From a virus: DNA of 64,000 bases. This document shows positions 2,827 to 47,558 of this stretch, in pieces; the first letter of the stretch is position 1, and each line of letters opens with the position of its first letter. A program made the translations under genes and the position numbers. Under the pieces are notes generated by a model, which saw only the letters and a program-made list of their open reading frames with translations, did no database searches and had not been told where the DNA came from. The stretch lies in IMG/VR virus record IMGVR_UViG_3300012642_000011, positions 128,001 through 192,000 of that record, one strand, 5' to 3'.

Positions 2827-3648
2827 ATGGAAAAGTATCACATCACAGACAAGGGTGAAGTCAAGACCTGCACTGCACATGTGCGTAAATGCCCCATCAA
2901 TGATGCCCCTATGCACTTTTCAAACAAAGAGGATGCCTACGAACACATTGCCAACACAGTCAATAATAGTGCAATCTTGACAAAAAAGAATGAAAGCATG
3001 ATCTCTCAGAGAGACAAGAAGAAGAAAATTCAGGCTTTTGTTGAACTAAACAAAATATTGGAGAAGTCATCTCGGGGTTTTGGATACCACGTCAGCAATG
3101 ACGGTCTGGAAGAAATCAACCCTGATAAAAGGACAGAGAACACTGACTTCACCTACCTTGGAGGAGGAATGGTCAGAGATGCTTACTATCACCAGAAGAC
3201 CAATCTTGTCTATAAGGTAAATCGTTTCTTCACAGATGAAGAATCCAGAAAATTTTCGCTTCACGAGAAGAGGGCCTATGACTCCTTGAATCATGAAGAA
3301 CTATGGAAGAAGAAAGTCCGCTATGCTGACACTGACTTCATTGAAACCCCTGATGGACGAATTTTCGTTACACAGGAAGCTATTTTGGCTGAAAATCTAG
3401 GATACCATCCCACCAAGTTCAGCAGCGCCCATGATGAGATGATGTCTCATTCATCAGGAAAAATAGGTGAGATAATGGGATTCTTGAAGGACAATGGGAT
3501 CACTGATCTTCAGATGGGGAATGTGGTCTATGACAAGAATAAAGATGAGATCATTCTCATTGACTGCCTCCCTATTGAAGATGACCTGTTGAAAAAAGTT
3601 CGAAAAGAGAATGACAAGGCGTGGGAGGATTCAGGAATGGATTATTGA
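2827..3648 (+). CDS. protein with shared N-terminal Cys module (KYHI...C...C...HF.NK.DA); C-terminal domain unassigned
   Basis: 273-aa track ORF; N-terminus MEKYHITDKGEVKTCTAHVRKCPINDAPMHFSNKEDAYEHI matches the module seen on 7 other ORFs in this window. Confidence 0.7.
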   Translation: MEKYHITDKGEVKTCTAHVRKCPINDAPMHFSNKEDAYEHIANTVNNSAILTKKNESMISQRDKKKKIQAFVELNKILEKSSRGFGYHVSNDGLEEINPDKRTENTDFTYLGGGMVRDAYYHQKTNLVYKVNRFFTDEESRKFSLHEKRAYDSLNHEELWKKKVRYADTDFIETPDGRIFVTQEAILAENLGYHPTKFSSAHDEMMSHSSGKIGEIMGFLKDNGITDLQMGNVVYDKNKDEIILIDCLPIEDDLLKKVRKENDKAWEDSGMDY

Positions 3649-3694
3649 TTTGATGTCACAGAACAACTCAATGATCCACCTTCAAGCAAGCGAC

Positions 3695-3723
3695 TTGACA
3701 ACAGTGCAAGCATGGTGTAAAAT
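3695..3723 (+). promoter_or_regulatory. sigma70-type promoter (TTGACA-17-TGnTAAAAT) upstream of tRNA-Ser
   Basis: ttgaca at 3695, 17-nt spacer ending tggtg, -10 taaaat at 3718. Confidence 0.5.
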
Positions 3724-3751
3724 AGAAGATGTCAGAAACGATATCAATAAT

Positions 3752-9836: not shown

Positions 9837-9908
9837 GCTTCTGTAGGTTAACGGTAAACCAGATGACTCTAAATCATTGACATGCGGGTTCGACTCCCGT
9901 CAGAAGCA
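9837..9908 (+). tRNA. suppressor-type tRNA (anticodon CUA, reads UAG)
   Basis: acceptor gcttctg/cagaagc; D-stem ggtt/aacc; anticodon stem gatga/tcatt loop ctCTAaa (U33, A37); T-arm gcggg-ttcgact-cccgt; no alternative register gives a 5-bp stem. Confidence 0.7.
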
Positions 9909-10010
9909 CGAAGATAAAGTAAATCTCTTAAGTTGAGTTTACTCTTTCTTCTGTCTACTTGACAACACAAGAAGTATAGTGTACAATAGAAGACAACAAC
10001 AACAAAATAT

Positions 10011-12347: not shown

Positions 12348-13838
12348 ATGAATTTCTTAGAAGCACATCCAGAAGTTTCATCATCATGGTCTGAAAATAA
12401 TGCATTCTCTCCTGACTCAATCTCCAAAGCATCAAGGAAAAAAGTCATCATCATCTGTGATAAACATGGTGACTATGAAATCAGGGCAGATTCTTACCAC
12501 AATGGCAACAGATGCAAACAATGTGCAGCAGAAGTCAAAGCACAGAGCAAGATCACGAAAGCAATTGCTCAACATGGAAGCGGTCTAGAAAAGTACCCCT
12601 CGCTAAAAAAGTATGCAGTAAGAGATTTCCACGCTAAAGATGATCACAAGATACCATTCCGCTGTCCCGATTGCGCACACGAATGGACGCTATCGCCCTA
12701 TAGTCAAATGATTATCAACGGCTGCCCACAATGTGACCCACAGGCAAAGATAAGAATGAAGAATCACATTCCTACTATGAAGTCTTTGACACATGGAAAC
12801 ATAGCAGACCAGAAACCAGAGATAGTTGCACAATGGTCGCCAAAAAATGATCTAACAACAGAACAAGTCAGTTGCGGTTCTGGTTATCGCGCTACATGGA
12901 TATGTGAGATCAATCCGAACCATGAATGGGAATCCTTTGTTTACCAGAGAGCAGGAAAGAAGGAAACAGGATGCCCACAATGCAATATATCTGGAATAGA
13001 ATCAGAAATTGGTCAACTCCTATCCGATCACCATGTTGACTTCATTCGTTCCAATCGAAAAATTATTGCACCCTATGAACTGGACATATACATTCCAGAG
13101 AAAAATGTAGCCATAGAAGCCAATGGTGTCTATTGGCATACAGAAAAACAAGGAAAAGATAGGAACTATCACTACAACAAGTGGAAACAATGCCATGATC
13201 AAGGAATCCAACTGATCACCATCTGGGAAGATGACTGGATGATGAAAAAAGAACTCATTAAAAAGATGATTCTTCACAAGATTGGACTATCCCATCAGAA
13301 AAGTATCTACGCACGTACATGTTCAGTCAAAGATGTTCCCACTATAGAATCCAATAGATTCTTGAATACTTACCATATTCAAGGAGAAGCAAGAGGAAGT
13401 GTGAAGATTGGACTTCACCATGAAGGAGAACTGGTTGCTATCTCCGTATGGAAGAAACTTAAAGAAGATGAATGGGAATTATCTCGCTATGCAACAAGCA
13501 TGAACGTTGTTGGTGGAGCAAGCAAAGTCATCAAAGCATTCATTCGTCAACACTCGCCAAGCAAGATTGTCACATTCGCTGACCATGAAGTATCTGATGG
13601 TGGACTATATGAAAAATTAGGGTTCACTGCCGACAAGGAGATCAAGCCTGATTACAAGTATGTTATAGACAACAAAAGAATACACAAGTTTAATTATAGA
13701 TTGAAGAGGTTCAAGAGCGATCCCACACTCATCTACGAAGAAGGATTGAGTGAATCACAGTTGGCTCAACTGAATAACATTGATAGAGCATGGGATTGCG
13801 GTAAAACACGATATATTCTGCAGTTACCCTTGATTTGA
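12348..13838 (+). CDS. putative freestanding homing endonuclease: N-terminal zinc-ribbon repeats + C-terminal DUF559/Vsr-like PD-(D/E)xK nuclease (paralog 1)
   Basis: 496-aa ORF, RBS aagga; repeated xxCxxC...HEW...GCPQC units; nuclease core ELDIYIPEKNVAIEANGVYWH; conserved tail RAWDCGKTRY shared with 15917 and 20738 ORFs. Confidence 0.75.
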   Translation: MNFLEAHPEVSSSWSENNAFSPDSISKASRKKVIIICDKHGDYEIRADSYHNGNRCKQCAAEVKAQSKITKAIAQHGSGLEKYPSLKKYAVRDFHAKDDHKIPFRCPDCAHEWTLSPYSQMIINGCPQCDPQAKIRMKNHIPTMKSLTHGNIADQKPEIVAQWSPKNDLTTEQVSCGSGYRATWICEINPNHEWESFVYQRAGKKETGCPQCNISGIESEIGQLLSDHHVDFIRSNRKIIAPYELDIYIPEKNVAIEANGVYWHTEKQGKDRNYHYNKWKQCHDQGIQLITIWEDDWMMKKELIKKMILHKIGLSHQKSIYARTCSVKDVPTIESNRFLNTYHIQGEARGSVKIGLHHEGELVAISVWKKLKEDEWELSRYATSMNVVGGASKVIKAFIRQHSPSKIVTFADHEVSDGGLYEKLGFTADKEIKPDYKYVIDNKRIHKFNYRLKRFKSDPTLIYEEGLSESQLAQLNNIDRAWDCGKTRYILQLPLI

Positions 13839-17665: not shown

Positions 17666-17734
17666 TTGATTTTAATGATACCTCCTTCTATAGAGAATTC
17701 TTCATAATATTCTTGTTAAGAAGGAGGCATCATA

Positions 17735-18793
17735 ATGTCGGCTAAGTATGCTTTAAACACGGCAACAGGTGAAATCACGCTTTGTCGTAGCACTGGTCAA
17801 CGTCCTTGCCCACATGCCTCTGCAGATCATTACTCTTCGAAAGATGAAGCCCAGAATGCTTTTGAATCACTCATGAAAAAACAAGAAACGTTGTCATTGC
17901 AGAGAAAAAGCACAACATCACCATCTTATGACAATCTTCCATGGTTATCTCATGTAGGCGATCATTTTGATCAGATTGATGCTCACTATGAGATCACGGA
18001 TAGGTTTGAACACAATGGTCAAGGAATGGTTCTTCTACACAGTGACAAATCACCCTATAGCAATAGAGACATCTCGGCGTTCACAGAAGATGGCGCTGAA
18101 GTTAGCACCAGTGAAGTCAGGGATGAGGAAACAGGTGAGAGAATAGGGTTCTTGAAGACAGTCCAGTACTCTGATGCTGCTTTAGAAGCATCCTTTGGGA
18201 AAGAGGATGATTACATGACATATTTAAAATATGGTGAACGGTATCATTCTCTGTTCTATGATTTTGACGATGATCCAAAAGAGAGCATAGAGAACATGAA
18301 AAAATTGTGGAAGTCTGTGGCATCCTCTTCTGTCGTTAGATCCCATCCCCAGTACAGTGTCACATCTATGGGAATGAAACATAGACATGCAAATGGTAGA
18401 AGTCTTAATCCGCCTGAAAGCATGGAAGAGATAGAATCTGACCTTAAAGAGTCATCTAAATTCTTCCAAGAGGAATATATGAAACGATTTGATCCCTCCA
18501 CGAGATCATATGCTTTCATTGAATACTCCGAAATCAATGAAAGCCATAGAGGAACAGGGCTTGGCAAAAAGATGTACCTATCATCTGCGCGTGCTTTAGG
18601 AGCAAGGGGCCGTATTCTTGCGTCTTCAACCTTACAAACAGACAATGCTCAAGGTCTATGGAAATCATTGCTGAAAGACGACAATGACCACATTAGAATC
18701 CACTCCTATGACTATAAGGGAGAAAAGAAAAACAATTACTTGCTTGATTATAGAGATAAGAGTATTGATCAAGTCAAGGATGGTGAAGAATAA
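17735..18793 (+). CDS. N-module protein (shared Cys module) with possible GNAT-like C-terminus, paralog A
   Basis: 352-aa ORF, RBS aaggaggcatcataATG; N-term YALNTATGEITLCRSTGQRPCPHASADHYSSKDEAQNAFE; C-term HRGTGLGKKMY resembles acetyltransferase motif A. Confidence 0.7.
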   Translation: MSAKYALNTATGEITLCRSTGQRPCPHASADHYSSKDEAQNAFESLMKKQETLSLQRKSTTSPSYDNLPWLSHVGDHFDQIDAHYEITDRFEHNGQGMVLLHSDKSPYSNRDISAFTEDGAEVSTSEVRDEETGERIGFLKTVQYSDAALEASFGKEDDYMTYLKYGERYHSLFYDFDDDPKESIENMKKLWKSVASSSVVRSHPQYSVTSMGMKHRHANGRSLNPPESMEEIESDLKESSKFFQEEYMKRFDPSTRSYAFIEYSEINESHRGTGLGKKMYLSSARALGARGRILASSTLQTDNAQGLWKSLLKDDNDHIRIHSYDYKGEKKNNYLLDYRDKSIDQVKDGEE

Positions 18794-19821
18794 TGCCTCA
18801 ATACGCTTTGAACACGCAAACAGGTGAGATCACGCTTTGTCGTAGCACTGGTCAGCGTCCTTGTCCACATGCTGACAATGATCACTATGCATCCAAAGAT
18901 GATGCTCAGAAATCTTTTGAGAGCATGAATGAGAACAATCAGATTGCCACATTGTCCAAGGCAAAAAAGGCACCAGAGGAATCATCCCTGCCCTTTCCTT
19001 CATGGGCAGAAGAACACAAGAAAGCAGTGGAAGCAGTAGGCGGAGAGTACAGTATTGTCAATAGGATCATACATCAAGGGAAGCCTATGGTCATCACACA
19101 TTCTACATTGTCTTCTCGTGATCACGATAAATTCGTCCAAGAGAAAAGCGGAATGAACATCTCAGAGACGATTGTTCATGATGAGGAAACAGGAGAAAAG
19201 ATTGGTTTCATCAATGTATGCTTTGTCAATGATGAGTCAGTGAGAAGATGCTTTGGTGATGAAGATGACTACATGACTCCTATCAGGTATGCCAAAAGGT
19301 ACATATCTTCAATTCAAGGCGCGAAGATGAAGGTCAATGAAGACCCTCGTGGCAATGATAAAAAGATGAGGGAATTGTGGCTTGATGTGATGAATGTTGA
19401 TTCATCTCATATAAGGGATTTCAAAGTTCCCTCTGGTGCCAAGATGAGCGGATGGTCATGGACAGCAGATGATGTTCCTGAAGACCCTAAGGCAGTAGAA
19501 AAGGATATCGAGTCACTATCTGGTCAATTCAAGGAACAACTCAGAGAGTTCAAGAGATCTTTTAGCGTTCCTTTTGTTGAATTTGCTGAAATAGAAGATG
19601 AGTACAAGGGAACAGGTTTAGGCAAGAAGATGTATGTGGAAGCAGCCAAGGCAATGGGAAAGCGTGGTATGGTAATCAGATCATCAGCAATTCAATCTGA
19701 AGATGCAGAAAGGCTATGGTCATCATTACGTAAAGATGAGAATATTGTTGTCAAAGAAGGTAATCTAGCCGTCAAGGGAGACACATACGATTACCTCTAT
19801 CTTGACTACAGGGATCAATGA
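18793..19821 (+). CDS. N-module protein, paralog B of 17735..18793
   Basis: 342-aa ORF; start overlaps upstream stop (ATAATG); N-term YALNTQTGEITLCRSTGQRPCPHADNDHYASKDDAQKSFE; C-term KGTGLGKKMY. Confidence 0.7.
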   Translation: MPQYALNTQTGEITLCRSTGQRPCPHADNDHYASKDDAQKSFESMNENNQIATLSKAKKAPEESSLPFPSWAEEHKKAVEAVGGEYSIVNRIIHQGKPMVITHSTLSSRDHDKFVQEKSGMNISETIVHDEETGEKIGFINVCFVNDESVRRCFGDEDDYMTPIRYAKRYISSIQGAKMKVNEDPRGNDKKMRELWLDVMNVDSSHIRDFKVPSGAKMSGWSWTADDVPEDPKAVEKDIESLSGQFKEQLREFKRSFSVPFVEFAEIEDEYKGTGLGKKMYVEAAKAMGKRGMVIRSSAIQSEDAERLWSSLRKDENIVVKEGNLAVKGDTYDYLYLDYRDQ

Positions 19822-23310: not shown

Positions 23311-23497
23311 GCGATCAAGGTCTGACACATAATCTTACACAAGAGAACACACTTGTCGCCTGAGAAAAACTCAAATGTTAATACTCATGATGAAATGATT
23401 GAATATCCCTAAAAACGATAGTGATCAATTCAATCCTCTATAAACATGTTAGAAAAGTGTTCATACATGTTTTCAAACAATACTATAGAGGTACATC

Positions 23498-25360
23498 ATG
23501 AGTAAGATGCATATTTCAGAAGATGGCAACGCAAGGCCATGTCATGCTTCAACCCCAGAGAAATGTACGTTAAAACCAAACCCAAATGACATCTACGGTA
23601 TCACAGGCAGGCACTTCGATTCTCAAGAAGAAGTAGAGAAGTTCTATGAGAGTATCCATAATGGTGGACTTGCATCCTTGAATAAGGAAAAAGAAAAGAA
23701 AGATCATATTCACCAATCAGACTCTCATGGAACATCTTCTCATCAACAAGAAACGTCAGACAACAGTGCTACAAGTCAGGACGACGATTCAGAAGAAAAT
23801 CATGCTTTCAATCCTACATATACCATTAACCCAGATGATTTAGACAAATTCAAGAAGAAGATTGACAAGGCCAACCAAAGGCTCAAGGACAATGGTATCG
23901 ATGACGAATTCACATATGATGTTGAGTATGAGGAAAGAAAGAAGAAAATTGGTCCAAACCTCTATGCTTATGAGCAATTTGCCAAAGTTACACTGAATAA
24001 ACCTGTCATCAAGCAAGAAGGATACACCTTTGAAGCGTCCGTGACCCAAGAAGAGGGCGGTATGCTGGTCAGGGGAACAAGAGAATCAGACCTTGAGGGC
24101 TGGCGTCCTTCTGACATGAGTTGTGAACACTGTGGTCAGAACAGGGACAGAAAGAAGGTCTATATCCTCAAAGATGAGGAAGGTAAAAAACATCAGGTAG
24201 GTTCCTCTTGTGTATCTGATTACTTGGGCGTCAAGCCTGAAGGATTGTGGGCACTTGATGTAGACCACGAAACATTTGCCCCCAGTGACAAAACACCTAG
24301 GTTCAAACCTATGTATGAACCTAAAACTCTTGCTGCTGTAGCAATGGCATTGAGTGATAGTGGAGAGAATTATATTGGTTCACAATCTCAAGGGGTTTCC
24401 ACTGCTTCTGAAGTCGATGCTTACTTCAATCCTCCTTCTCCTCAAGGAAGAGGCTACGAGGCTAGACGAAAAGCCCAAGAAGAAAACGAGAGACGAGCAC
24501 AAAAGGTAGAAAAATACTTGGCTGATCCTGAGAACACTAAGAAAATAGATGATGCCATGAATGCTGTAAAAAACATGAATAGGGGTGACTATGCTGAAAA
24601 CATGAAGACCATTTTTAATTCTTCTAAAGTCAGTGGAAAGTCCTTCAACTATGCCGTTTCTGCAGCAGCTGTTTACAATAGGGCGCAAAGAGATGCCCAA
24701 AGGACGCAACAGTGGGCAGAGGAGAAGAAATCAAGAGAAGAGAAGAGGGCACAAGAAGTAAAACAGTACGCCACTGGCTATTTAGGTAATGAAGGTGATT
24801 CTGTCAAAGGAACTTCAGCTACTTTTGTAGGCATGAGGAATACAAGCATGACAGATATGCGTGGTAACCCTGTGAAAGCAATCACGATGAAGAGCGCAGA
24901 TAATAAACAGGTGGTCTGGTTCACTGCTACTCCTGATAATGATTTTAAAGAAGGCGATGAGATTGAGATCACAGCGGGCAGTGTCAAGAGGCAGGGGCAT
25001 TACAACGGCATTGACCAAACTATCATCACCAGAGCAAAGATTACTGATAAGCATACATTGAACACATCTAATAATGTTCGTGAAGCAATGAAGAAGTCTA
25101 GGTTGACGAAGAACTTCAAAAATGGTCGTGGACAGAATGACAAGGATTACGTCATCACTCCTGCAAGTACTGAAGATGGATATGCAATGAGTTTCTCAAA
25201 GAACAAGGAGACTGGCGAATTCTCTATTCTCAAGTACCACATTCATGATAAGTTTGATAATGGATTAGTATTCAAAGGCAGCGAATCAGATGGCTATGAT
25301 TTCATGAAAAATGCTATCAAAAACAACGAATCAGTGTCTAACATGAAATCTATTGATTGA
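23498..25360 (+). CDS. N-module protein, 620 aa, C-terminal part unassigned (contains CEHCGQ...CVSDY zinc-ribbon-like segment)
   Basis: track ORF; N-term MSKMHISEDGNARPCHASTPEKCTLK...HFDSQEEVEKFYE fits the shared module. Confidence 0.7.
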   Translation: MSKMHISEDGNARPCHASTPEKCTLKPNPNDIYGITGRHFDSQEEVEKFYESIHNGGLASLNKEKEKKDHIHQSDSHGTSSHQQETSDNSATSQDDDSEENHAFNPTYTINPDDLDKFKKKIDKANQRLKDNGIDDEFTYDVEYEERKKKIGPNLYAYEQFAKVTLNKPVIKQEGYTFEASVTQEEGGMLVRGTRESDLEGWRPSDMSCEHCGQNRDRKKVYILKDEEGKKHQVGSSCVSDYLGVKPEGLWALDVDHETFAPSDKTPRFKPMYEPKTLAAVAMALSDSGENYIGSQSQGVSTASEVDAYFNPPSPQGRGYEARRKAQEENERRAQKVEKYLADPENTKKIDDAMNAVKNMNRGDYAENMKTIFNSSKVSGKSFNYAVSAAAVYNRAQRDAQRTQQWAEEKKSREEKRAQEVKQYATGYLGNEGDSVKGTSATFVGMRNTSMTDMRGNPVKAITMKSADNKQVVWFTATPDNDFKEGDEIEITAGSVKRQGHYNGIDQTIITRAKITDKHTLNTSNNVREAMKKSRLTKNFKNGRGQNDKDYVITPASTEDGYAMSFSKNKETGEFSILKYHIHDKFDNGLVFKGSESDGYDFMKNAIKNNESVSNMKSID

Positions 25361-25485: not shown

Positions 25486-26787
25486 TTACTCGTCATCGAT
25501 ATCAAAATGTAAATCCAGATCTTTCAAGATCTCTTCATCTGTCTTCTTTTTTAGCGGATTTTCACCTGTCTGTTTCTCGACAAACTCAGCAAAGCCAGGA
25601 ATCATTTTGGCTATGCGGGCAGTATAATCTACTCTTGAGGCGTTTCTTGCAAGAGTTTGATCGTCCTTCAGCCTTCCCTCCTGTGCTTCCTTCATGAAAA
25701 ACGCCAAGTTTTTGGCGGCACGAGTATAATCCTTGTGCTCACTTTCGTCATAGAAACTTTCCTTGTGATCTCCTGAATATGGTAATCCCTCACCATCCCA
25801 GTTCTGCTTTCCGTTGATGACGATACTGTCTTTATTCCTGTGCTCATAGACGACAAAAGTTCTCGTGGAAGCATCAGGAGCCATGACCGTATAAGTAAGA
25901 CCGTTCTCTCTGCCGTTCTCCATGAAAGAGACGAATACATTGCCAATTCCTTGTTTGTCCATCTCTTCCTTTAGTTCCTTATGAGGAAAGCCGAAAGCAA
26001 GATATGCCTGTTGATTATCCTTTGTTTCTGCGACGATGCGATCTCGTGGCTGTAGATAAAAGATGCTTTCATAATGTTCTCCATTATCCATTCCTTCTGG
26101 GTGCATCTGATAATCATCATTCTCACCATTGACAATTCTCCCAATGGATTCCTGTACATATTTTTTCTCTTCGAGTTCTTTAACCTTCTTCTCCCCAAAG
26201 CCATAAGAGAAGAACTTTTCTACCGCTGCATCTGTTGAATGATCGAATCCAACCAATTTTTCATTCTTTTCGTATTCTGAAGAAAATCGTTGTGGAGTAT
26301 GGGATTTTCCCCATTGGGACATGATTTCCGTGCCAGCAATGTCTTTAATCTCTCGACTTCTTACACCAGGATCAGATGAACGCCAACTGTGTTGCCGAAT
26401 AGGAGGCTTCTGTTCAATTTGATTGTATTCCTTAATTGCTGTATCAAGGTCGCCTTTTCTTGCTGCTAGTACTGACTTTTCTGCGCGGAGAAGAGCAGCA
26501 TTGTCAAAAGAATCCCATTTCGTTGGATCTTTTTCAATATACTTCTTTTTAAAGTAGTGCATATCTGGGTTATCGCTTCCTTGTGGACGATCCAGAATCC
26601 TATTGAGAACCCTTTCTCTTGCGTTTTCGCTTAGTGCCTCCACCTCTTGCTTGAATTCAAAGTGTTCGCGTGCTTCCTCTTTTGAATCAAAATGATCTTT
26701 TTCCATGTCACCCATTCTACACTTACGCTTTGCAGGGCATTTTACTGCTGTTCCTTTGGCTGAAATATGGTATCTTTCTTTTTCCAT
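25486..26787 (-). CDS. N-module protein, 433 aa (minus strand)
   Basis: track ORF; N-term MEKERYHISAKGTAVKCPAKRKCRMGDMEKDHFDSKEEAREHFE fits the shared module; rest unassigned. Confidence 0.7.
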   Translation of the reverse strand: MEKERYHISAKGTAVKCPAKRKCRMGDMEKDHFDSKEEAREHFEFKQEVEALSENARERVLNRILDRPQGSDNPDMHYFKKKYIEKDPTKWDSFDNAALLRAEKSVLAARKGDLDTAIKEYNQIEQKPPIRQHSWRSSDPGVRSREIKDIAGTEIMSQWGKSHTPQRFSSEYEKNEKLVGFDHSTDAAVEKFFSYGFGEKKVKELEEKKYVQESIGRIVNGENDDYQMHPEGMDNGEHYESIFYLQPRDRIVAETKDNQQAYLAFGFPHKELKEEMDKQGIGNVFVSFMENGRENGLTYTVMAPDASTRTFVVYEHRNKDSIVINGKQNWDGEGLPYSGDHKESFYDESEHKDYTRAAKNLAFFMKEAQEGRLKDDQTLARNASRVDYTARIAKMIPGFAEFVEKQTGENPLKKKTDEEILKDLDLHFDIDDE

Positions 26788-26851
26788 CTTGCTCTCCTAT
26801 GTGAGTTCATATAGATACATTTCTCTCTATAAACATAATGGTAAGATATAC

Positions 26852-27383: not shown

Positions 27384-27527
27384 GTACTAAACAATAAGAT
27401 CATCAGTTCAAATCTAGTCACCCTGCTATCGTTCTCATAAGATACAAGTGTCATCTCTACATTGATTAACCTATTACGATGGTAATTTTTAGAGAAGAGT
27501 GATGAGAAAACAGCAGGTGATAAGAAC

Positions 27528-28541
27528 ATGAAATACCATATTGATGATAATGGGACACCAAAAGTATGTGATGCTTCTTATGATAACTGTCCTTATGGGG
27601 CTGATGCTCCACACTTTGACAATAAGGCAGATGCTCACCAATACTATGAGAAGATCAATACGTCAGAGGAGATTCCTTCTGGACTGTCAAAGAAAAAGTC
27701 AAAGTCTCCTATGATGGTCTCTGTTTACAGAGCAGGCAGAATGAGTCCAGCCAGTGCTGAAGAGAGTTTTGAAGATCTAGAAAGGGTCAAGAAACTCTTT
27801 GATGATCGTGCCCCAGAAGGGAGGCAGAAAAGATCAGGAGCACTTTTCGCCAGTCCTGATTTAAAATCACATTCCAGATGGGTCGGCAGTTCTGGCCCTG
27901 CATCATTGACCAGTCATGAGTTTAAAGTAGATGCGAATAATGTATATATTTACAATGTCAATCTTTACGAGAATGCGTCTTATACGGATGAATCGGAAAG
28001 CATTGAAACTGTAAATAAAATGATTGATGATTATTGGAATTCTGGAATGACTCTTGCCCAATGGCATCAGATGTCCGAAGAGGAAAAGGGTGATTATGGC
28101 TCATGGGAGATTCTTCTTCCTTCAGATCGGGAATACAAAACTAAGAAAGTTCCTAATAAAACAGTAATCACTGAATCTGATCCTTCCCTATCAAATCAAC
28201 TCAATTGGTCTTTAGAGAGAAAACGAGCCAGAAATGGACTTATATGGAGAAAATCTCACCTATCAGAAGATGATTATCAGCAGGTAAAACAATCTCTTTC
28301 ATCAGAGAATATTGATGAAGAATTCATTGAAGACATGGAGAGCATTCATAGATCAAATGCTTACAGGGTTGAGGATTTGTATTCCGCAAGAATGGAAATC
28401 TACAACAAGTACAAGAACATCAGAAAGAAAAAAGATGACATAATACCCAATTACAGTCAGATCAATGACGGACAGAAGGAGGAGTTCTTCAATAAGGTTG
28501 AGGTCTATTTCAAGAAAACTGATGATTTTTCACATACATGA
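27528..28541 (+). CDS. N-module protein, 337 aa
   Basis: track ORF; N-term MKYHIDDNGTPKVCDASYDNCPYGADAPHFDNKADAHQYYE; its last 13 codons are duplicated downstream at 30724-30765. Confidence 0.7.
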   Translation: MKYHIDDNGTPKVCDASYDNCPYGADAPHFDNKADAHQYYEKINTSEEIPSGLSKKKSKSPMMVSVYRAGRMSPASAEESFEDLERVKKLFDDRAPEGRQKRSGALFASPDLKSHSRWVGSSGPASLTSHEFKVDANNVYIYNVNLYENASYTDESESIETVNKMIDDYWNSGMTLAQWHQMSEEEKGDYGSWEILLPSDREYKTKKVPNKTVITESDPSLSNQLNWSLERKRARNGLIWRKSHLSEDDYQQVKQSLSSENIDEEFIEDMESIHRSNAYRVEDLYSARMEIYNKYKNIRKKKDDIIPNYSQINDGQKEEFFNKVEVYFKKTDDFSHT

Positions 28542-31662: not shown

Positions 31663-31735
31663 AGACTGATTGATGCAGAGTAACTCTCCAATACCCTCAT
31701 CTTTGCTATGATCTCATCAGAGCATATAAAGCCAA

Positions 31736-32170: not shown

Positions 32171-32174
32171 TATA

Positions 32175-36373: not shown

Positions 36374-36471
36374 TTACAAGAGACCTAGAACGATGTTAAC
36401 AATGTCATCGTTCTAGGTCTCTTGTTTCTTTAGAGATTATTCTATTGAATAAGAAGTTATGAGGTACCATC

Positions 36472-37536
36472 ATGAAGAAATACCACATCAATCTCAAAGG
36501 TAATGTGATGCCATGCGAGGCTGATGTCAAGCCTTGCAAATTCGGATCTGCAGATCACTTTGAAAGCAAAAAGGCAGCACAACAATCATTTGAAGATGCT
36601 GCAGAGAAAACGCCTTTAAAGAATAGAGAAAAATTCAAAGATCAATCAGATTATTTTGCCTCTATAGCCCAAGATTCCCTTGATTCTGAATATGTGATGG
36701 TAGGAGATAAAAATCGTGATGTTTTGAGTTTCTCATCTGCTGAACTTGCTAAAGGGAACAGTAAGATCGTGGCTGATTATATGAAATGGTATACAGAGCC
36801 ATATGAAGGAGATCATGATGATGACTATGATGACTATACACCTCCTCAAGAACTCTCTGTGACATGCTACAATCCCCGTGGACCACACTTCTCTGACGAT
36901 CACTATGCTAACTACTACATTGATGACAATGGGCAGAAGATCATTGTGGATTATGGATTCTCAGAGTTCGATGAAAATGAGAATCAACCTTATGTTGGTA
37001 CAGAAGATCAGTGGAAACGTGATATCAAGCATCATGCTTACATGGGTTCTGTGTTGTCAGAAAGAACTATAAAACTGCAACGTCGATCAGGTACTCTTCC
37101 TGTATTTCCTGCAGGAGAAAAGAACCCTCTTTTAGATAAGACTGTCTTGGAAGAGCCAGAAGGAAGAAATCCATTCAAGGGTCCAAAGGACAATTATCCT
37201 CACACACGCTTTCTTTCTGTTGATGGCATAAGAGTAGCGGCTGTTCAATATGGTCTTGACGAGGATGGCAAAACACCAAAGATTTGGTCTGCAGAGACAA
37301 GGAAAGAGTACAGAAATCAAGGTTACATGACCAAACTGTATAATATGCTTGCAGAGGATTACAACGTTCCTCATGTGACATCAGGAGGATCATACACTCC
37401 CGATGGTTATGCTTATATGAAGAGATATCACGATGCTCACGGTCAGACAGAGGGGAAAATCAACTTCCCCTACTATCAAGGAGAAAATAAGTTTTCCTTT
37501 ATACACGATTGGGTTGATAGAGGAGAATTTAATTGA
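36472..37536 (+). CDS. N-module protein, 354 aa, possible acetyltransferase-like C-terminus
   Basis: N-term MKKYHINLKGNVMPCEADVKPCKFGSADHFESKKAAQQSFE; C-term YRNQGYMTKLYNMLAE resembles the C-termini of 17735/18793. Confidence 0.7.
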   Translation: MKKYHINLKGNVMPCEADVKPCKFGSADHFESKKAAQQSFEDAAEKTPLKNREKFKDQSDYFASIAQDSLDSEYVMVGDKNRDVLSFSSAELAKGNSKIVADYMKWYTEPYEGDHDDDYDDYTPPQELSVTCYNPRGPHFSDDHYANYYIDDNGQKIIVDYGFSEFDENENQPYVGTEDQWKRDIKHHAYMGSVLSERTIKLQRRSGTLPVFPAGEKNPLLDKTVLEEPEGRNPFKGPKDNYPHTRFLSVDGIRVAAVQYGLDEDGKTPKIWSAETRKEYRNQGYMTKLYNMLAEDYNVPHVTSGGSYTPDGYAYMKRYHDAHGQTEGKINFPYYQGENKFSFIHDWVDRGEFN

Positions 37537-40906: not shown

Positions 40907-41236
40907 TTACGATGAGACGCTCCAACAACCACTATTGTCAAATCTACTTCTGTATGCTTTATCGCCTCGTATAGCGCAATCAGATCTCCAAGCTTGAGTG
41001 CCAACACATATAGTATCACGATTCTGCATTAACGCTTGGCCATAATTAGTCACGCATCTAGCGGTATCCGCACCAACACCATACAAGGCAGTAGTGATCC
41101 AACCCACAATCGCAATTGCAGCAATAGCAAAACCAGCAACAATAATTATCATCTGGACGAGATCGCCACGATCTTTACCCTCAGCCTCTTGACTATTCAA
41201 GAAAACATCATGAATATTCTTCAAAAATCCTTTCAT
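40907..41236 (-). CDS. small signal-anchored Cys-rich protein, array member 1 of 4
   Basis: 109 aa; MKGFLKNIH...DRGDLVQMIIIVAGFAIAAIAIVGWITTALYGVGA then a variable 4-Cys C-terminal domain. Confidence 0.65.
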   Translation of the reverse strand: MKGFLKNIHDVFLNSQEAEGKDRGDLVQMIIIVAGFAIAAIAIVGWITTALYGVGADTARCVTNYGQALMQNRDTICVGTQAWRSDCAIRGDKAYRSRFDNSGCWSVSS

Positions 41237-41467
41237 TAGTTAGTACTCCTGTGTATAAGATTATGATCACATTGCGTGATAACTCTTTAATTTATATCAA
41301 ACAATTTCTAATAATAATATCAAAGAAAGGTTATTTATTTACGATAAACTAACAGGGTGATAGTGCTTTTCTTCTTAAAAACACTATCACCCTGTTAAGT
41401 GTGCGTAAGATCTAAATCCTTTGATCTTCCGACTTATATGAATGTATAATTACTCTTCAATGCTATT

Positions 41468-41803
41468 TTATACATAAACTTGTGACCAATAACAACCATT
41501 CTTATCAAATCTACTTTTGTATGCACTATCGCCTCGTATATCACACTCAGATTTCCAAGCATGCTCATCATAACATAGAGTATCACGATTCTGCATTAAC
41601 CCTTGACCATAATTAGTCATGCATCTAGCAGTATTAGCGCCAACACCATACAGAGCTGTAGTGATCCAGCCCACTATTGCTATTGCGGCAATAGCAAAGC
41701 CAGCAACAATGATTATCATCTGGACAAGATCTCCACGATCCTTGTCCTCAGTCTCTTGATTATTCAAGATAACAGCGTGAATATTCTTTAAAAACCCTTT
41801 CAT
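41468..41803 (-). CDS. small signal-anchored Cys-rich protein, array member 2 of 4
   Basis: 111 aa; same N-terminal 60 aa, divergent C-terminus LCYDEHAWKSECDIRGDSAYKSRFDKNGCYW. Confidence 0.65.
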   Translation of the reverse strand: MKGFLKNIHAVILNNQETEDKDRGDLVQMIIIVAGFAIAAIAIVGWITTALYGVGANTARCMTNYGQGLMQNRDTLCYDEHAWKSECDIRGDSAYKSRFDKNGCYWSQVYV

Positions 41804-42023
41804 ATTGATTGGTGCTCCAGTGTATAAGATCAGTAATCACATAGTGTGATAACTTTTTAATTTATATCAAATAATTTCTAATACTAACATCAAAGAAAGG
41901 GTATTAATTGATGATAAATTAACAGAGTGATAGTGCTTTTATTCTTAAAAACACTATCACCCTGTTAAGTGTGCGTAAGATCTAAATCCTTTGATCTTCC
42001 GCCTCATACAAATCTATAAACTA

Positions 42024-42356
42024 TTACGAGGGCAAAGCAAGCAGACAACCATTATCATCAAATCTACTACTGTATGCTTTATCGCTTCGTATAGCACACT
42101 CAGAATCCAAAGCGTGATCATTATAACACGCAGTATCACGATTCTGCATTAAGCCTTCACCATAAGTAGTCAAGCATCTAGCACTATCAGCACCAACACC
42201 ATACAAGGCAGTAGTGATCCAACCTACAATTGCGATTGCAGCAATGGCAAAACCAGCAACAATGATTACCATCTGGACAAGATCTCCACGATCCCTGTCT
42301 TCAATCTCTTGATTATTCAAGATAACAGCATGAATATTCTTTAAAAATCCTTTCAT
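42024..42356 (-). CDS. small signal-anchored Cys-rich protein, array member 3 of 4
   Basis: 110 aa; C-terminus ACYNDHALDSECAIRSDKAYSSRFDDNGC. Confidence 0.65.
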   Translation of the reverse strand: MKGFLKNIHAVILNNQEIEDRDRGDLVQMVIIVAGFAIAAIAIVGWITTALYGVGADSARCLTTYGEGLMQNRDTACYNDHALDSECAIRSDKAYSSRFDDNGCLLALPS

Positions 42357-42403
42357 TGTTTGGTGTTCCCTGTGTTGATTGAGTGAAAACTTTTTAACCT
42401 ATA

Positions 42404-42751
42404 TCAAGTAAGAACTTCCCCCACCCAATCATCATTCCAACAACTATCAGTATCAAATCTACTTTTGTATGCTTTATCGTCTTGTATAGCGCAATCAGAT
42501 TGGAAAGCATGACTGTCATAACACCAAGCATCATGATTCTGCATTAACCCTTGACCATAAGTAGTCAAGCATCTAGCACTATCAGCACCAACACCATACA
42601 AAGCAGTAGTGATCCAACCCACAATCGCAATTGCAGCAATGGCAAAACCAGCAACAATGATTACCATCTGGACAAGATCTCCACGATCCTTGTCCTCAAT
42701 CTCTTGACTATTCAAGAGAACAGCATGAATATTCTTTAAAAATCCTTTCAT
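42404..42751 (-). CDS. small signal-anchored Cys-rich protein, array member 4 of 4
   Basis: track ORF 42404..42766 trimmed to the conserved MKGFLK start; C-terminus WCYDSHAFQSDCAIQDDKAYKSRFDTDSCWNDDW. Confidence 0.6.
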   Translation of the reverse strand: MKGFLKNIHAVLLNSQEIEDKDRGDLVQMVIIVAGFAIAAIAIVGWITTALYGVGADSARCLTTYGQGLMQNHDAWCYDSHAFQSDCAIQDDKAYKSRFDTDSCWNDDWVGEVLT

Positions 42752-42856
42752 TAGTTGGTGCTCCATTGTATAAGATAGTGATCACATTATGTGAAAACTT
42801 TTTAATTTATATCAAAGAATTCTAATACTAATATCTTATTCATTTATAATCTTTTC

Positions 42857-43744: not shown

Positions 43745-43800
43745 GAAAACGCGTTGTGCAGTTAGTGGTTTTAATCCCATGTTGCACAACGCGTTTTCTT
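43745..43800. terminator. bidirectional terminator between convergent genes
   Basis: inverted repeat gaaaacgcgttgtgca-N22-tgcacaacgcgttttc. Confidence 0.6.
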
Positions 43801-44947
43801 ATCGGGAAATCAAAGCATCGACTGCATTCATAGCCTGATTCAATCTACTGTAGTAGTTTCCAGAGATCACTTGATATTTCACACCTTGACTATCAAGCAG
43901 TGCTTTCAGTCTTTGAGATGACCTTTCTCTGACCTCTTGATCCCCAAACACGCGTGTACCATCATCCACCCATTCCACGTCGGGATCAAGGAACAACCAC
44001 AAATCAAACTTCTGAGACTTGGCAATAGCCTCAACAAGCGGTTGCTCAACATCTTCCCCTTCATACTCTACGCTGAAGTTCTGTGTCACATATGCTTCTG
44101 TGTCAACAAAAAGGATCTTGTTCGCTTCCTTTTGCTTTTTATAAACTTCATGCGCATGCTCAACAGCAATCTGTGAGAAGTCTTCAGGAAGAGTATTGTA
44201 GTCATTCATTTTCTCATAGAATGTTCTGCCGATTTCCTCCACATAACATGTTCCATACAGGGAAGCAAGATTCCTCACCATCGTGCTTTTCCCATTGGAT
44301 TCTGTGCCAACAATGACCACCTTCTTGACGAAATGCTCCCTGACTACAGAAGGAATCATATCCCAATGTTTAAGAACCCCATCCTGCCTTATTTTGGTAC
44401 CACTGATGTTGAACCTTGATCGCTGATGATCAATGATCACATGTGTTGCCTCTGGGTACAAACGCGCAAAGATGGAATCATACTCATATTCTGAAGAGAA
44501 AACCGCATCAATAGGCTTCCCGATAACATTTTTAATCCCATCAGCGCCCTTTTGCCAATCCTCAATATGACCAGTCTGTTCCTCGTAAACAGCGTGAACA
44601 TGAACATGAGGCATATCTTTAGTGATCTGTTTCCACCACCTGACTCTAAGTTTGTAATTGACCTTACTCACCTTGTTGTCTGCATACAGAGAATCTTCAT
44701 ATTTTTCATCATAAGAAACAATGATATGCAACTCTTTACACATAGTAGACGCCTGAATCATGGCATATAGGTGACCATTATGAGGGATGATGAATTTACC
44801 ACCATAGAATCCAACATCGAACTGATTTTCAATGACTTTGGACATTCCTGCATTTGTATCTTCTGTGATAACAATGGTCTCTGGTCTCAATTGGTTCTTA
44901 TCTTTCATCACTATTTCCTTTTCCAATTCAAGAGTGTTAGCAATCAT
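43799..44947 (-). CDS. nadR: NadR-type bifunctional NMN adenylyltransferase / ribosylnicotinamide kinase
   Basis: nucleotidyltransferase motif GGKFIIPHNGH and P-loop GTESNGKST; ATG at 44947 overlaps the pnuC stop (ATGA); track ORF extends further upstream. Confidence 0.75.
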   Translation of the reverse strand: MIANTLELEKEIVMKDKNQLRPETIVITEDTNAGMSKVIENQFDVGFYGGKFIIPHNGHLYAMIQASTMCKELHIIVSYDEKYEDSLYADNKVSKVNYKLRVRWWKQITKDMPHVHVHAVYEEQTGHIEDWQKGADGIKNVIGKPIDAVFSSEYEYDSIFARLYPEATHVIIDHQRSRFNISGTKIRQDGVLKHWDMIPSVVREHFVKKVVIVGTESNGKSTMVRNLASLYGTCYVEEIGRTFYEKMNDYNTLPEDFSQIAVEHAHEVYKKQKEANKILFVDTEAYVTQNFSVEYEGEDVEQPLVEAIAKSQKFDLWLFLDPDVEWVDDGTRVFGDQEVRERSSQRLKALLDSQGVKYQVISGNYYSRLNQAMNAVDALISR

Positions 44948-45708
44948 CACAAAACCTCTTCCTTCTGGTTTCCTGCGATCTTTCTCCAATTGATGTAGCC
45001 ATACACGCTGTTGACCAAGAAAGCAATCCACATCACAAGGATGGAAAGGTTGTTTCCTCCTTGCTCAATCATTGTCATGATCCACATGGTGATAGTCAAA
45101 ATATTAATCACAATCCATACAAGCCACTGCTCCACGAACCTATTGATCATAAGGATTTGTGCAACAATGCTGAGAACAGTGGTCACACTATCAAGGCCAA
45201 TGGATCTTCCACCAATAGTAGAAAGGAAGAAGGCATAGACCACACTGAGAGCAATAGTGGACGCCACGAGGATTGCCCACTTCTTGAGATCCATTTTCTT
45301 AGCAATGACCTGTTCTCCTACTACACTCTCTTTGCTCTTTACGGCATTCTTCCTCCACAGATAGAACCCGATAAACTGCATGGGGATGTAGAAGAGCCAG
45401 TTAAGCATTACTTCACCGTAAATGGCATATGTATAAGAGATGTAGCCATACAAGGCTGCTTGAATAAAGCCGAAGAAGTAATTACTGATTTTACCCTTGG
45501 CGACCAGAACTACACAGATCATTCCTGCCATGGCAGCAATCAGACTGATTACTGTTCCATCTGTGAACAGAAATACAGCAAGGTTGACCAAGAAAAAGAT
45601 GGTTATCCATACTCTTTCAAATATAGTCCATTCAGAAAGAGATCCAAAAATAGATCTCAAAACATTCTTTGTAGTGAATCGAGGTGTAGTAACTGTAGCA
45701 GTACTCAT
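44947..45708 (-). CDS. pnuC: PnuC-family nicotinamide riboside transporter
   Basis: polytopic membrane protein with PnuC-like W-rich helices; start MSTATVTT with RBS aaggag; track ORF 44947..45765 trimmed. Confidence 0.7.
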   Translation of the reverse strand: MSTATVTTPRFTTKNVLRSIFGSLSEWTIFERVWITIFFLVNLAVFLFTDGTVISLIAAMAGMICVVLVAKGKISNYFFGFIQAALYGYISYTYAIYGEVMLNWLFYIPMQFIGFYLWRKNAVKSKESVVGEQVIAKKMDLKKWAILVASTIALSVVYAFFLSTIGGRSIGLDSVTTVLSIVAQILMINRFVEQWLVWIVINILTITMWIMTMIEQGGNNLSILVMWIAFLVNSVYGYINWRKIAGNQKEEVL

Positions 45709-46103
45709 TTCTTTCTCCTTTGTTTTTGTTCTGCTGGCGATGGAGACCAAAACCCAGCAAGGCATTCATAACCAAGTTTTCTTGATCAACACTAATATAT
45801 CAAAGTGACTACTAAGAAATCGACTAAAGTGACAATCACCACAATATCTTGGTTTTTAGTGATATCAAACCGACAATTCCTTTTGATATGATTATGTATC
45901 AGTTTTTGTATCCAAAAAGAAAGGGGAAATAAAATGGATAATCTCCCTATGACAGATACCGAAGAGTGGGGAATCGAAGTCGCAAAGGAAATAGATGCCA
46001 TGATTCGAGTGCAATCCTCATTCAATATGTAATTGAGCCTCTCGACAACCTCTTATACTTTGCCATCTTCTTTAGAGAAAAAGACATCCATCAAGGAGGA
46101 ATA

Positions 46104-47558
46104 ATGGCAAAGAAATACCACATTAGCGACAATGGAGAAGTCGTAGAATGCAGAGCAAACAAGATCCCCTGCAAAAAACAGAACTTCAACTCACAACAAG
46201 AAGCAGAAGAGCATCTTGAATCTACTTTGGCTTCACCATTGTCAAAGTTCTCTCCATCAGGAAGCAGACAAAACGCACACCTGTCAAAAATGAGAGACAA
46301 GTATGGCACAGACCATATTCACTCCTATACTATGTCTTCTATTGACAAGCCAACCAATGAGTTGCTGTCTTCATTGTCCTCTGTAGGAAGCCCTCTCATT
46401 GTTGGTGGATCAGTCAGGGATTCTTTGGTAGGGTCAGAATCTAAAGACATAGACATAGAAGTACACAAAACATCCATGAATGCGTTGATTAAACACCTGA
46501 AATCATCTGGATATAACGTTAACGAAGTTGGGAAACAATTCGGTGTGCTCAAAGTTACAGGACATGGCTTAGAAGAAACAGATATCTCTGTTCCCCGTAA
46601 AGAAAATAAGGTAGGTTCAGGACATAGGTCATTCAATACTTCATTTGATCCCGAGATGAGCATTACAGAGGCTGCAGAGCGAAGAGATTTCACTTTCAAT
46701 GCCATCATGTACGATCATCAGAACAATGTCCTCATTGATCCAACTGGAGGTAAAGAAGACCTTGAAAACAAAGTTATGAGACATGTTTCTGACAAGTTCA
46801 CTGAAGATCCCTTACGAGTTCTCAGGGGAGCGCAATTTGCAACACGATTCAATATGTCTTATCACCCCGATACAGCAAAGATCTCAAAACAGATCAGGCA
46901 TGAGTACAATGATCTCTCCAAAGAGAGGTTGCGAGAAGAATGGGGTAAATTCCTAGAAAAAGGAAAAAATCCTCGATCTGGAATAAAAGCGCTTCAAGAT
47001 TCTGGGTGGGATGACATGACTACTGGATTGAAAGAATCCCTCTCATCTGAGCATACTCAACAATCTCTTGAGAGAGTTACAGAACAACCTAAAGAATACA
47101 GAGCATTGCTAGGATCTGCTGCTATCATGACAAACATGGAGAAGAAGAACAGAGAAAAATTCTCCACAACTTCTTTAATGTCTAAATCAGATGAAAAAGT
47201 CGCCATGGCCCTTTGTGATCTTCAAGATTCCCAATGGGAGAGCACCTATGATAGAAAAGTTGCAGCGAAGTCATTCCCCAAAGGAGTCGATTTTGAACTT
47301 GTACACAGGTATGCAACTGTGACAGACAACAGCGTTCTCAAAGATCACAGCCGGAAAGCAATTAGTGAAGGACTAGGGAAAGAGCCTGAGAAGGACTTGA
47401 TAACAGGATCAGACATCATGATGAAGACAGATCGCACACCTGGGCCTTGGATGGCACAACTTCTCAATGAGATCAGAGACAACCAGTACAAGAATAACTG
47501 GACTGACAGAAAAGATGCTTTAAACTACATGAACAAGAGACTGGAACAGATGACATAA
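46104..47558 (+). CDS. cca: CCA-adding tRNA nucleotidyltransferase fused to the shared N-terminal Cys module
   Basis: head-domain motifs LIVGGSVRDSLVGSESKDIDIEV, RRDFTFNAIMYD, DPLRVLRGAQFATRF; N-term MAKKYHISDNGEVVECRANKIPCKKQNFNSQQEAEEHLE; RBS ggagg; track ORF 45966.. trimmed to this ATG. Confidence 0.8.
   Translation: MAKKYHISDNGEVVECRANKIPCKKQNFNSQQEAEEHLESTLASPLSKFSPSGSRQNAHLSKMRDKYGTDHIHSYTMSSIDKPTNELLSSLSSVGSPLIVGGSVRDSLVGSESKDIDIEVHKTSMNALIKHLKSSGYNVNEVGKQFGVLKVTGHGLEETDISVPRKENKVGSGHRSFNTSFDPEMSITEAAERRDFTFNAIMYDHQNNVLIDPTGGKEDLENKVMRHVSDKFTEDPLRVLRGAQFATRFNMSYHPDTAKISKQIRHEYNDLSKERLREEWGKFLEKGKNPRSGIKALQDSGWDDMTTGLKESLSSEHTQQSLERVTEQPKEYRALLGSAAIMTNMEKKNREKFSTTSLMSKSDEKVAMALCDLQDSQWESTYDRKVAAKSFPKGVDFELVHRYATVTDNSVLKDHSRKAISEGLGKEPEKDLITGSDIMMKTDRTPGPWMAQLLNEIRDNQYKNNWTDRKDALNYMNKRLEQMT

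Follow-up and report, generated by a model that had tools for sequence, protein, structure and literature searches.

An N-terminal element common to unrelated proteins of one phage is known from T4, where the capsid-targeting sequence (CTS) is carried by the internal proteins IPI-III and by Alt. Here, this and other described systems are compared with a Cys- and His-containing module of about 46 residues, which begins eight proteins encoded in a 64,000-nucleotide stretch of the IMG/VR virus record IMGVR_UViG_3300012642_000011 (positions 128,001 to 192,000 of the record; below, this whole stretch is called the window, and coordinates refer to it unless another locus is named). The CTS is an unstructured propeptide of 10-20 residues that is cut off by the prohead protease, whereas the module is predicted to be a folded Cys/His domain followed by a linker, and the two have no sequence similarity. 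The CTS is portable and works on foreign cargo (PMC5694885), and its cargo includes a packaged ADP-ribosyltransferase (ART) (PMC5512222).

In giant phages, the N-terminal ~110-130 residues of many head-internal proteins are thought to target them to the prohead (PMC5694885, PMC13282480), ejection proteins have propeptides of >100 residues (PMC5694885), and phiKZ-type heads hold a large protein payload (PMC13282480). These inner-body and ejection families (phiKZ, 201phi2-1, SPN3US) likewise belong to very large phages, and the module with its linker (58-105 residues) is shorter than, or comparable with, propeptides of 110-130 residues; however, phiKZ, 201phi2-1, and SPN3US are Gram-negative myoviruses, and phiKZ-type propeptides show neither a single conserved domain over unrelated cargo nor a Cys/His signature. 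No homology to giant-phage inner-body or ejection proteins was found, as no PHROG covers the module and the PHROGs of the cargo are not head proteins.

Polymorphic toxins (e.g., MuF-toxin fusions of temperate phages, LXG, PAAR, Rhs) also combine a constant N-terminal delivery domain with hypervariable C-termini (ART, nuclease, kinase) in many paralogues. The module differs in being far smaller than MuF or LXG and in having among its cargo housekeeping-type enzymes (the DNA ligase LigA, the CCA-adding enzyme) and HEAT/LRV repeats. Known trafficking domains, these and others, were not found by Pfam in 8 + 148 + 39 proteins, and no immunity genes were identified, with no systematic test made for them. 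The polyvalent proteins of phages and conjugative elements unite 2-15 effector domains in one giant polypeptide (Iyer et al. 2017, PMC5512222); their enzymes (ART, GNAT, ParB-type, nucleases, kinases) are predicted to enter the cell with the DNA (PMC5512222). MuF fusions are a further precedent (PMC5512222). The polyvalent repertoire overlaps the cargo of the module, although the module effectors are separate genes with one cargo each, the only two-cargo case being a fusion of tandem paralogues (relative P0027). Finally, small zinc fingers (C2H2, zinc ribbon, treble clef, e.g., DUF4379) resemble the module in their two Cys and two His and in a ββα-like arrangement of β-hairpin and helix; the order and spacing of the putative ligands in the module, H-x9-C-x6-C-x7-H, are, however, unmatched in the families tested, and no zinc-finger family gave a significant Pfam, NCBIfam, or PDB profile match. 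Constant N-terminal tags joined to variable cargo are, as a principle, already known from other systems; for the domain family described here, no significant match was found in the libraries and papers searched.

The module as a domain family

The original prediction, made from the DNA of the window, listed eight open reading frames (ORFs) sharing the module, and translation shows all eight to be present and open with it. The one given as starting at 25486 on the minus strand is a module gene, although it runs from 26787 down to 25486 and has its module at the 26787 end. A hidden Markov model (HMM) of the eight N-termini narrows "at least eight" copies to exactly eight among 1,072 six-frame segments of the window, with E of 6e-27 to 8e-20 for its own members and 1.3 for the next segment. 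Because this test of the model on its own members is circular, leave-one-out models were run; these found the omitted copies at E of 8.8e-6 to 1.9e-16, any other segment scoring 0.37 or higher, and the results for 17735 and 18793 are not fully independent, since in each case the other paralogue stays in the model. The module genes are the following.

Gene 1: 2827..3648, plus strand, 273 aa; module at 2827-2967
Gene 2: 17735..18793, plus strand, 352 aa; module at 17735-17881, with a "YA...CPH" ligand variant
Gene 3: 18793..19821, plus strand, 342 aa; module at 18793-18936; tandem paralogue of gene 2
Gene 4: 23498..25360, plus strand, 620 aa; module at 23498-23665, its Cys-to-His loop enlarged by an insertion of 9 residues
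Gene 5: 25486..26787, minus strand, 433 aa; module at 26641-26787; cargo phrog_11149 and phrog_6319, of unknown function
Gene 6: 27528..28541, plus strand, 337 aa; module at 27528-27665; disordered linker at residues 46-58
Gene 7: 36472..37536, plus strand, 354 aa; module at 36472-36609; in the cargo, a GNAT signal below threshold
Gene 8: 46104..47558, plus strand, 484 aa; module at 46104-46235, without the last His; cargo a class II CCA-adding enzyme

For gene 8, ATG 46104 is preferred as the start over GTG 45966 because of the ribosome-binding site and the upstream motif (see below). Gly10, Cys15, and Cys22 are invariant in the eight copies, and His precedes "F/Y-x-S" in seven of them. The mean pairwise identity of the eight modules is 34% for amino acids and 48% for nucleotides, and third-codon positions at identical residues agree in only 47% of cases; hence, the conservation is old and acts at the protein level. 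A DNA- or RNA-level repeat, or recent gene conversion, is ruled out by the same randomised third-codon positions.

When 1.84 billion cluster representatives are scanned with the profile of the eight copies, 3,692 proteins score E <= 1e-3, of which 79 reach E <= 1e-10; figures out of 150 given below refer to the best 150 of the 3,692. In 136 of these 150 the module begins at residue 1, while the protein length varies from 39 to 649 aa. The outside proteins align with the profile end to end at their N-termini, and the objection that the similarity is compositional fails on this point. Chance or compositional resemblance, or mis-called ORFs, is refuted by these 3,692 external homologues together with the leave-one-out recovery (E down to 1e-16 against the six-frame background); the invariant Cys residues and a consistent AlphaFold fold speak against it as well, and we assign it practically no weight.

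The consensus is M-x-K-Y-H-I-x3-G-x-P-x2-C-x-A-x4-C-P-x-G-x4-H-[FY]-x-S-K-E-E-A-x3-[FY]-E, with an almost invariant M-x-K start. The ligand pattern H-x9/10-C-x5/6-C-x7-H is present in 146 of the 150 relatives. The sole lineage that lacks His5 (replaced by Ala in genes 2 and 3 and in P0027) has acquired a His two residues past the second Cys, a swap of ligands expected of a metal site; the last His is missing only in the module of the CCA enzyme. By this pattern, the module is predicted to bind one metal ion, probably Zn, via His5, Cys15, Cys22, and His30. Conservation ends ~16 residues past the last His and gives way to a weakly Lys-rich stretch. The net charge is +2.7 in the N-terminal and -2.8 in the C-terminal half of the module, and its end is acidic (a conserved Glu) in 138 of 146 proteins, X-E motifs being too common to inform on cleavage.

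In the AlphaFold model of the module alone (62-sequence alignment; mean model confidence, pLDDT, 79), residues 4-6 and 12-14 form strands, the two Cys sit in a loop, a bridge is placed at the second His, and residues 33-46 are helical. In the full-length model of the gene 6 protein, the module is followed by a linker with pLDDT <50 (residues 46-58) and then by a confident cargo domain; as modelled, the module is a separate bead on a string, tethered to its cargo. The module and the disordered linker together occupy from 58 residues (gene 6) to ~105 residues (gene 4) ahead of the cargo. The "metal-binding adaptor" of the original prediction fits the near-invariant H-C-C-H pattern, the His ligand swap, and the predicted small domain on a disordered tether. 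A Foldseek search of viral models (BFVD) yields nine proteins with TM-scores of 0.60-0.73 and identities of 25-44%, all of the same family and all from the uncultured "Siphoviridae sp. ctHip2"; they are uncharacterised, save for one named Zeta toxin.

Searches of Pfam, PHROGs, and NCBIfam with the eight proteins and with 108 diverse modules gave nothing significant on the module, the sub-threshold noise in the module profile searches consisting of DUF7552, DUF6233, and DUF2188. The best PDB profile match was the β3-α2 strand-helix "HFETQEAAERAIE" of the PABP RRM (E 0.3, noise); the "HF-x-SKEEA" strand-to-helix motif is probably a generic capping motif and no sign of homology. Members of the family are named "hypothetical protein" in the source records, and no description of the module was found in the literature searched. 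Hence, as had been suspected, the module is no named domain of Pfam, NCBIfam, PHROGs, or PDB; it is a real domain family, new to the libraries and papers searched.

Eight of the 150 relatives have two modules. One of these is the tandem-paralogue fusion, and four are built as module-coiled coil-module: the cargo-less P0006, P0033, P0041, and P0078 (loci L045 and L046; 146-169 aa), in which a ~50-aa coiled coil separates the first module from a second that begins with "RWHIT" or "KWHIT", and which sit on contigs of at most 1.4 kb.

Cargo, carriers, and the upstream element

The C-terminal parts, originally described as mutually unrelated, are so by BLASTP for all genes except 2 and 3, which are tandem paralogues alike beyond the module (34% identity, E 1e-52) and have a fused two-module counterpart elsewhere, P0027. 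The CCA-adding enzyme is borne out (PolyA_pol 3.8e-21; phrog_2244 5.7e-59), while the acetyltransferase-like domains suggested alongside it are not secured: the GNAT matches in 17735 (at the C-terminus), 18793, and 36472 all lie under the Pfam thresholds, as does an LPD11 match of gene 2 (16.8 bits vs. 27). Gene 1 has no cargo annotation, its only Pfam match being a sub-threshold one to crAss_CARGO2 (E 0.003); the same cargo is present in relatives P0001, P0084, and P0131. For gene 6, the cargo fold is that of a BC2332-like ADP-ribosyltransferase. The cargo of gene 4 (residues 105-517) is a member of phrog_2319 and exists alone in two cultured actinophages, as Rhodococcus phage Finch gp27 and Gordonia phage Stormageddon gp21; the module is therefore an add-on. 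To our knowledge, CCA enzymes and LigA are normally without the module, too. A phmmer search of PDB with four cargos gave nothing.

In the family, 144 cargo regions fall into 106 BLAST clusters, and most cargo has no annotation. Effector-like cargo includes ADP-ribosyltransferase exoenzyme domains, Zeta-toxin/AAA_33 kinases, and GNATs; cargo acting on nucleic acids, GmrSD_C nuclease, polynucleotide kinase, the ParB C-terminal domain, RNase T-type exonuclease, NAD-dependent DNA ligase, and the CCA-adding enzyme; repeat-type cargo, MORN, HEAT/LRV, and LysM. No canonical virion structural protein and no DNA polymerase, helicase, or primase is found among the recognisable cargo; the one replication enzyme is LigA, the module-bearing NAD-dependent DNA ligase being encoded in locus L047 (5964-8225, minus strand). 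The products of seven module genes that lie within 10 kb of locus L048 (1025-11458) are two ART toxins, one kinase of the Zeta type, one exonuclease of the RNase T type, and three proteins of unknown function.

A degenerate DNA pattern made for one fixed spacing variant of the module matches 28 loci on 24 contigs of IMG/VR, 17 of the contigs being 99-325 kb long, and only five loci when each of 185,579 species is represented by one genome; due to the design of the pattern, both counts are lower bounds. The IMG/VR matches are often clustered, 2-3 within a few kilobases, and contigs of 332 kb and 437 kb are further carriers. The five species-genome loci come from Nesterenkonia alba DSM 19423 (two contigs) and from Clostridia metagenome-assembled genomes (three contigs). 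N. alba DSM 19423, an actinobacterium in culture, has three module genes, on NZ_ATXP01000020 (locus L036, 3125-4587; 51-55% GC) and NZ_ATXP01000018 (L039, 7479-7546), and these loci may belong to a resident large phage and offer an experimental entry point; Pfam yielded no annotation for them. The consensus module had no tblastn match in 50,697 cultured-phage records. Module genes are numerous where they occur: eight in the 64 kb of the window, ten in 21 kb (L005, of a lineage that includes the 437-kb contig), seven in 17 kb (L048), five in 21 kb (L047, on a 179-kb contig), and at least nine module proteins in ctHip2. The bearers of the module are uncultured phages of very large size, from one clade or more. 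Near the module genes of 19 of 20 other loci there are no tRNA genes, and a tRNA- or RNA-binding role, at which the tRNA-rich window hints, was rejected on these grounds.

The motif T[TA]TAGAGA (TWTAGAGA) is found upstream of the start in all eight module genes, in one of them with a single mismatch, at 25-38 nt from the ATG in six genes and at 6-7 nt in two. The exact 8-mer has 11 sites on the two strands of the window, seven of them ahead of module genes, so that it marks 7/8 module genes vs. 0/60 other ORFs (Fisher p = 8e-9). No conserved -35 region was found with it. The elements are listed below.

TTTAGAGA: 2812..2819, plus strand, 7 nt before the ATG of gene 1
TATAGAGA: 17689..17696, plus strand, 38 nt before the ATG of gene 2
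TATAGAGA: 18749..18756, plus strand, 36 nt before the ATG of gene 3, within the end of gene 2
TATAGAGG (one mismatch): 23484..23491, plus strand, 6 nt before the ATG of gene 4
TATAGAGA: 26824..26831, minus strand, 36 nt before the ATG of gene 5
TTTAGAGA: 27488..27495, plus strand, 32 nt before the ATG of gene 6
TTTAGAGA: 36429..36436, plus strand, 35 nt before the ATG of gene 7, after a terminator-like hairpin
TTTAGAGA: 46071..46078, plus strand, 25 nt before the ATG of gene 8

An analogous motif, TWTAGA[GA]A, precedes 5/7 module genes vs. 0/16 others (p = 6e-4) in the unrelated huge phage of locus L005. We infer that TWTAGAGA could be a single-element promoter with the geometry of T4 late promoters, read by a phage-specific factor, and that the tagged genes would form a regulon of their own. 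If the element is indeed a promoter, the mRNA of gene 1 may be leaderless. The "co-regulated" part of the original prediction thereby gains support in an unexpected form, a private upstream DNA element common to the eight genes. Such a dedicated element suggests a promoter class that the sigma-70-type scans made here do not match.

Possible roles of the module

Quite probably, the module is a domain without catalytic activity that its bearers share as an adaptor or an address. An address or adaptor tag, and not an enzyme or a specific DNA-binding regulator, is indicated by its strict N-terminal position, the tether, the more than 100 cargos, the copy number, the restriction to very large phages, the separate regulation, and the small, presumably metal-stabilised domain. 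In the proposed scheme, an autonomous N-terminal mini-domain of ~46 residues, formed by a β-hairpin, a Cys loop, and an α-helix around one putative metal ion, stands ahead of >100 accessory proteins that are unrelated and nearly always soluble, with a disordered linker rich in Lys between module and cargo; many of these proteins are enzymes that modify the host or nucleic acids (ARTs, Zeta-type kinases, GNATs, nucleases, DNA ligase, tRNA/RNA repair). The tagged genes of at least two lineages would be driven by their own promoter-like element, and the module would serve as a common handle that brings very different cargo to one shared partner. As the destination of the tag we tentatively favour the virion: the tag would load cargo into the assembling capsid, for injection with the DNA, by a logic like that of the T4 CTS (Alt, internal proteins) and of the propeptides of giant-phage ejection proteins. 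This choice is made because of the T4 CTS, the giant-phage propeptides, the large amount of protein carried in phiKZ-type heads, and the enzyme types that the cargo shares with predicted injected proteins; virion loading is plausible without being probable, and is ranked slightly ahead of a cytoplasmic or nucleic-acid hub. The combined statement, an adaptor or address tag with the assembling capsid as its preferred destination, comes near an even chance and falls short of it, and we are rather doubtful that the tag is a sequence-readable loading and injection signal in the full sense, i.e., that every bearer is packed into the capsid and delivered to the host with the DNA.

Several observations weigh against this scheme. 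Virion genes were not found near any module gene, and a transmembrane helix is present in ~1/150 proteins. We know of no precedent for a folded, zinc-type capsid-loading signal, and the CTS peptides of T4, with their 10-20 residues, are unstructured. The NAD-dependent DNA ligase, the RNase T-like exonuclease, and the CCA-adding enzyme are odd passengers for a capsid and better suit a cytoplasmic or nucleic-acid role, while the module-coiled coil-module proteins look like bivalent binders and not like tagged passengers. The upstream element is missing from other module-bearing lineages and is at most a candidate for a promoter, late or otherwise; metal binding is read from conservation only.

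Some of these points would be accommodated by a module that is never packaged and docks enzymes on a single partner inside the cell (DNA or RNA of the phage or the host, a replication/repair factory, an abundant host machine), thereby raising their local concentration. Such a hub would explain why LigA, the RNase T-type exonuclease, the CCA enzyme, polynucleotide kinase, GmrSD_C, and the ParB C-terminal domain all act on nucleic acids, and the module-coiled coil-module proteins do resemble bivalent bridging factors; basic charge prevails in the N-terminal half of the module, a patch rich in Lys lies in the linker, and small Zn domains are commonly nucleic-acid binders. However, the module as a whole is neutral, with an acidic most conserved surface (SKEEA...E), and the substrates of the cargo, which range from nicked double-stranded DNA and tRNA 3' ends to, probably, proteins in the case of C3-like ARTs, are too varied for one specificity. 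The module genes of other phages are unlinked to tRNA genes, and the private upstream element is left unexplained. We consider a cytoplasmic hub or nucleic-acid adaptor possible, yet on balance unlikely.

A module without any binding partner could act as a starter for expression and gene capture, the element, ribosome-binding site, start codon, and robust small domain constituting a 5' cassette for foreign coding segments that ensures transcription, efficient initiation, and stability. The joint travel of the upstream element and the module in two lineages, the addition of the module to cargo that occurs alone elsewhere, the very high turnover of cargo, the nearly invariant M-x-K start, and the placement of module genes in variable regions, beside mobile elements and genes of homing type, all suit a cassette of this kind; nevertheless, purifying selection keeps four putative metal ligands and surface residues over 3,692 clusters at ~35-45% identity, which argues for a biochemical function, the modules are too diverged in DNA (48%) to provide homology for recombination, most lineages that keep the module lack a conserved upstream element, and tandem and internal copies of the module occur. 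We regard the starter as improbable, and judge no better a metal- or redox-sensitive, or protease-recognised, switch or degron that times the activity or lifetime of potentially toxic phage enzymes. The latter would account for the Cys/His site, the strict N-terminal position, and the many toxin-type cargos (Zeta kinases, ARTs, GNATs, an HNH-type nuclease), but a disordered tether of 13 to >50 residues makes direct autoinhibition of varied folds unlikely, harmless cargos are tagged as well (CCA enzyme, DNA ligase, HEAT/LRV repeats), and no known degron or anti-sigma-type Zn motif matches.

With an address tag as the preferred reading, the module would mark a coherent, separately regulated class of accessory proteins in giant phages, most of whose genes lack an assigned function. 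These phages are known mainly from metagenomes. The module provides a sequence handle on a whole functional compartment, with 5-10 or more members per ~20 kb and thousands of families overall; if it specifies a destination, be it the capsid, the replication factory, or a host machine, finding the single partner would give the site of action of thousands of unknown proteins. If loading and injection hold, the tagged proteins of metagenomes would be a readable catalogue of injected effectors (first-strike ARTs, kinases, nucleases, repair enzymes), and the tag could be a portable one for loading foreign proteins into phage heads and for engineering. Should the module prove to be an ordinary small zinc finger, all that is left of the finding is a domain family to be added to Pfam.

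Other features of the window

The window comes from an uncultured phage-like genome of very large size. A protein identical to that of gene 7 recurs on one contig in ENA (ERZ27289831 k141_11150; 332,269 bp) and on several contigs from JGI. No close cultured phage was found for the window, the megablast matches being to one tRNA only, and its DnaE is distant, at 38% identity, from that of a Streptomyces phage. The left flank, covering the 8.7 kb upstream of the window, contains SNF2 and VWA genes, and neither module genes nor virion genes; no virion genes were found by comparing ten further large ORFs of the window with PHROGs. The window has 36 tRNA genes and one tmRNA, and its other genes include a split DnaE polymerase, a clamp loader, NadR, a nicotinamide mononucleotide (NMN) transporter, an IS607-like resolvase/TnpB pair, and three DUF4379 proteins. 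Their positions, with those of further genes, are as follows.

12348-13838, 15821-17665, 20738-22675: large proteins, one per interval, in each of which the DUF4379 treble-clef zinc finger is repeated 2-3 times
28642-30567: gene lying 100 nt beyond the end of module gene 6; its 641-aa product combines CshA-repeat, Big_9, and cadherin-like Ig domains
30949-34372: NucS-like nuclease gene, then the IS607-like pair of a serine resolvase (32175-32801) and a TnpB/Cas12f-like protein (32798-34372)
40907-42766, minus strand: four tandem paralogues of ~110 aa (MKGFLKNIH...), each with one hydrophobic helix and a 4-Cys C-terminal part
43799-45765, minus strand: NadR-like bifunctional protein (cytidylyltransferase and AAA_28) with an NMN transporter
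51395-51739: phage-encoded tmRNA, tag ANSAKNDFALAA
52910-54397 and 55496-58183: two ORFs of a DnaE-type polymerase III alpha, the first with PHP and the start of the NTPase domain, the second with the rest
54360-55487: clamp-loader gene, between the two DnaE halves (52910-58183)

The DUF4379 proteins, one of which also has an MTES_1575 restriction-endonuclease-like domain, are interspersed with tRNA genes and form the second multi-copy family of the region; they may be homing-type nucleases. Another TnpB, together with a Y1 transposase, lies amid the module genes of L048. The gene of the 641-aa CshA-repeat protein has no promoter-like element of its own and may be co-transcribed with module gene 6; the protein may be a surface or virion adhesin and thus a hint at the host. 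Each of the four ~110-aa paralogues is preceded by the same long sequence "TTTGATATAAATTAAAAAGTTnTCAC".

Promoter-like signals of two other kinds were seen in the window. Immediately ahead of tRNA genes there are near-perfect promoters of the sigma-70 type (TTGACA, a 17-18 nt spacer, TAnnnT, with TG), and the tRNA arrays, unlike the module genes, appear to be read by the host RNA polymerase. An extended -10 class, "TTTGATAnAAT", is found upstream of DnaE, the NucS-like gene, the resolvase, the NMN transporter, and the four small paralogues; TTGATA is present in 13/68 upstream regions vs. 3.6 expected.

Sigma-70-type promoters: 20009-20037, 20103-20131, 26852-26881, 34710-34738, 35032-35060
Extended -10 "TTTGATAnAAT": upstream of 22969, 30949, 32175, 40907, 41468, 42024, 42404, 44947, 52916

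Among the tRNA genes, one at 9837-9909 has the anticodon CTA (an amber suppressor; labelled "tRNA-Pyl" by ARAGORN), and two tRNA-like genes, at 2578-2649 and 34822-34898, have odd anticodon loops (2-nt and 4-nt calls). The stop codon TAG is used in 5/68 ORFs, and in 1/30 ORFs longer than 200 aa. Taken together, the CTA-anticodon tRNA, the odd tRNA-like genes, and the scarcity of TAG stops may reflect suppression or recoding of TAG.

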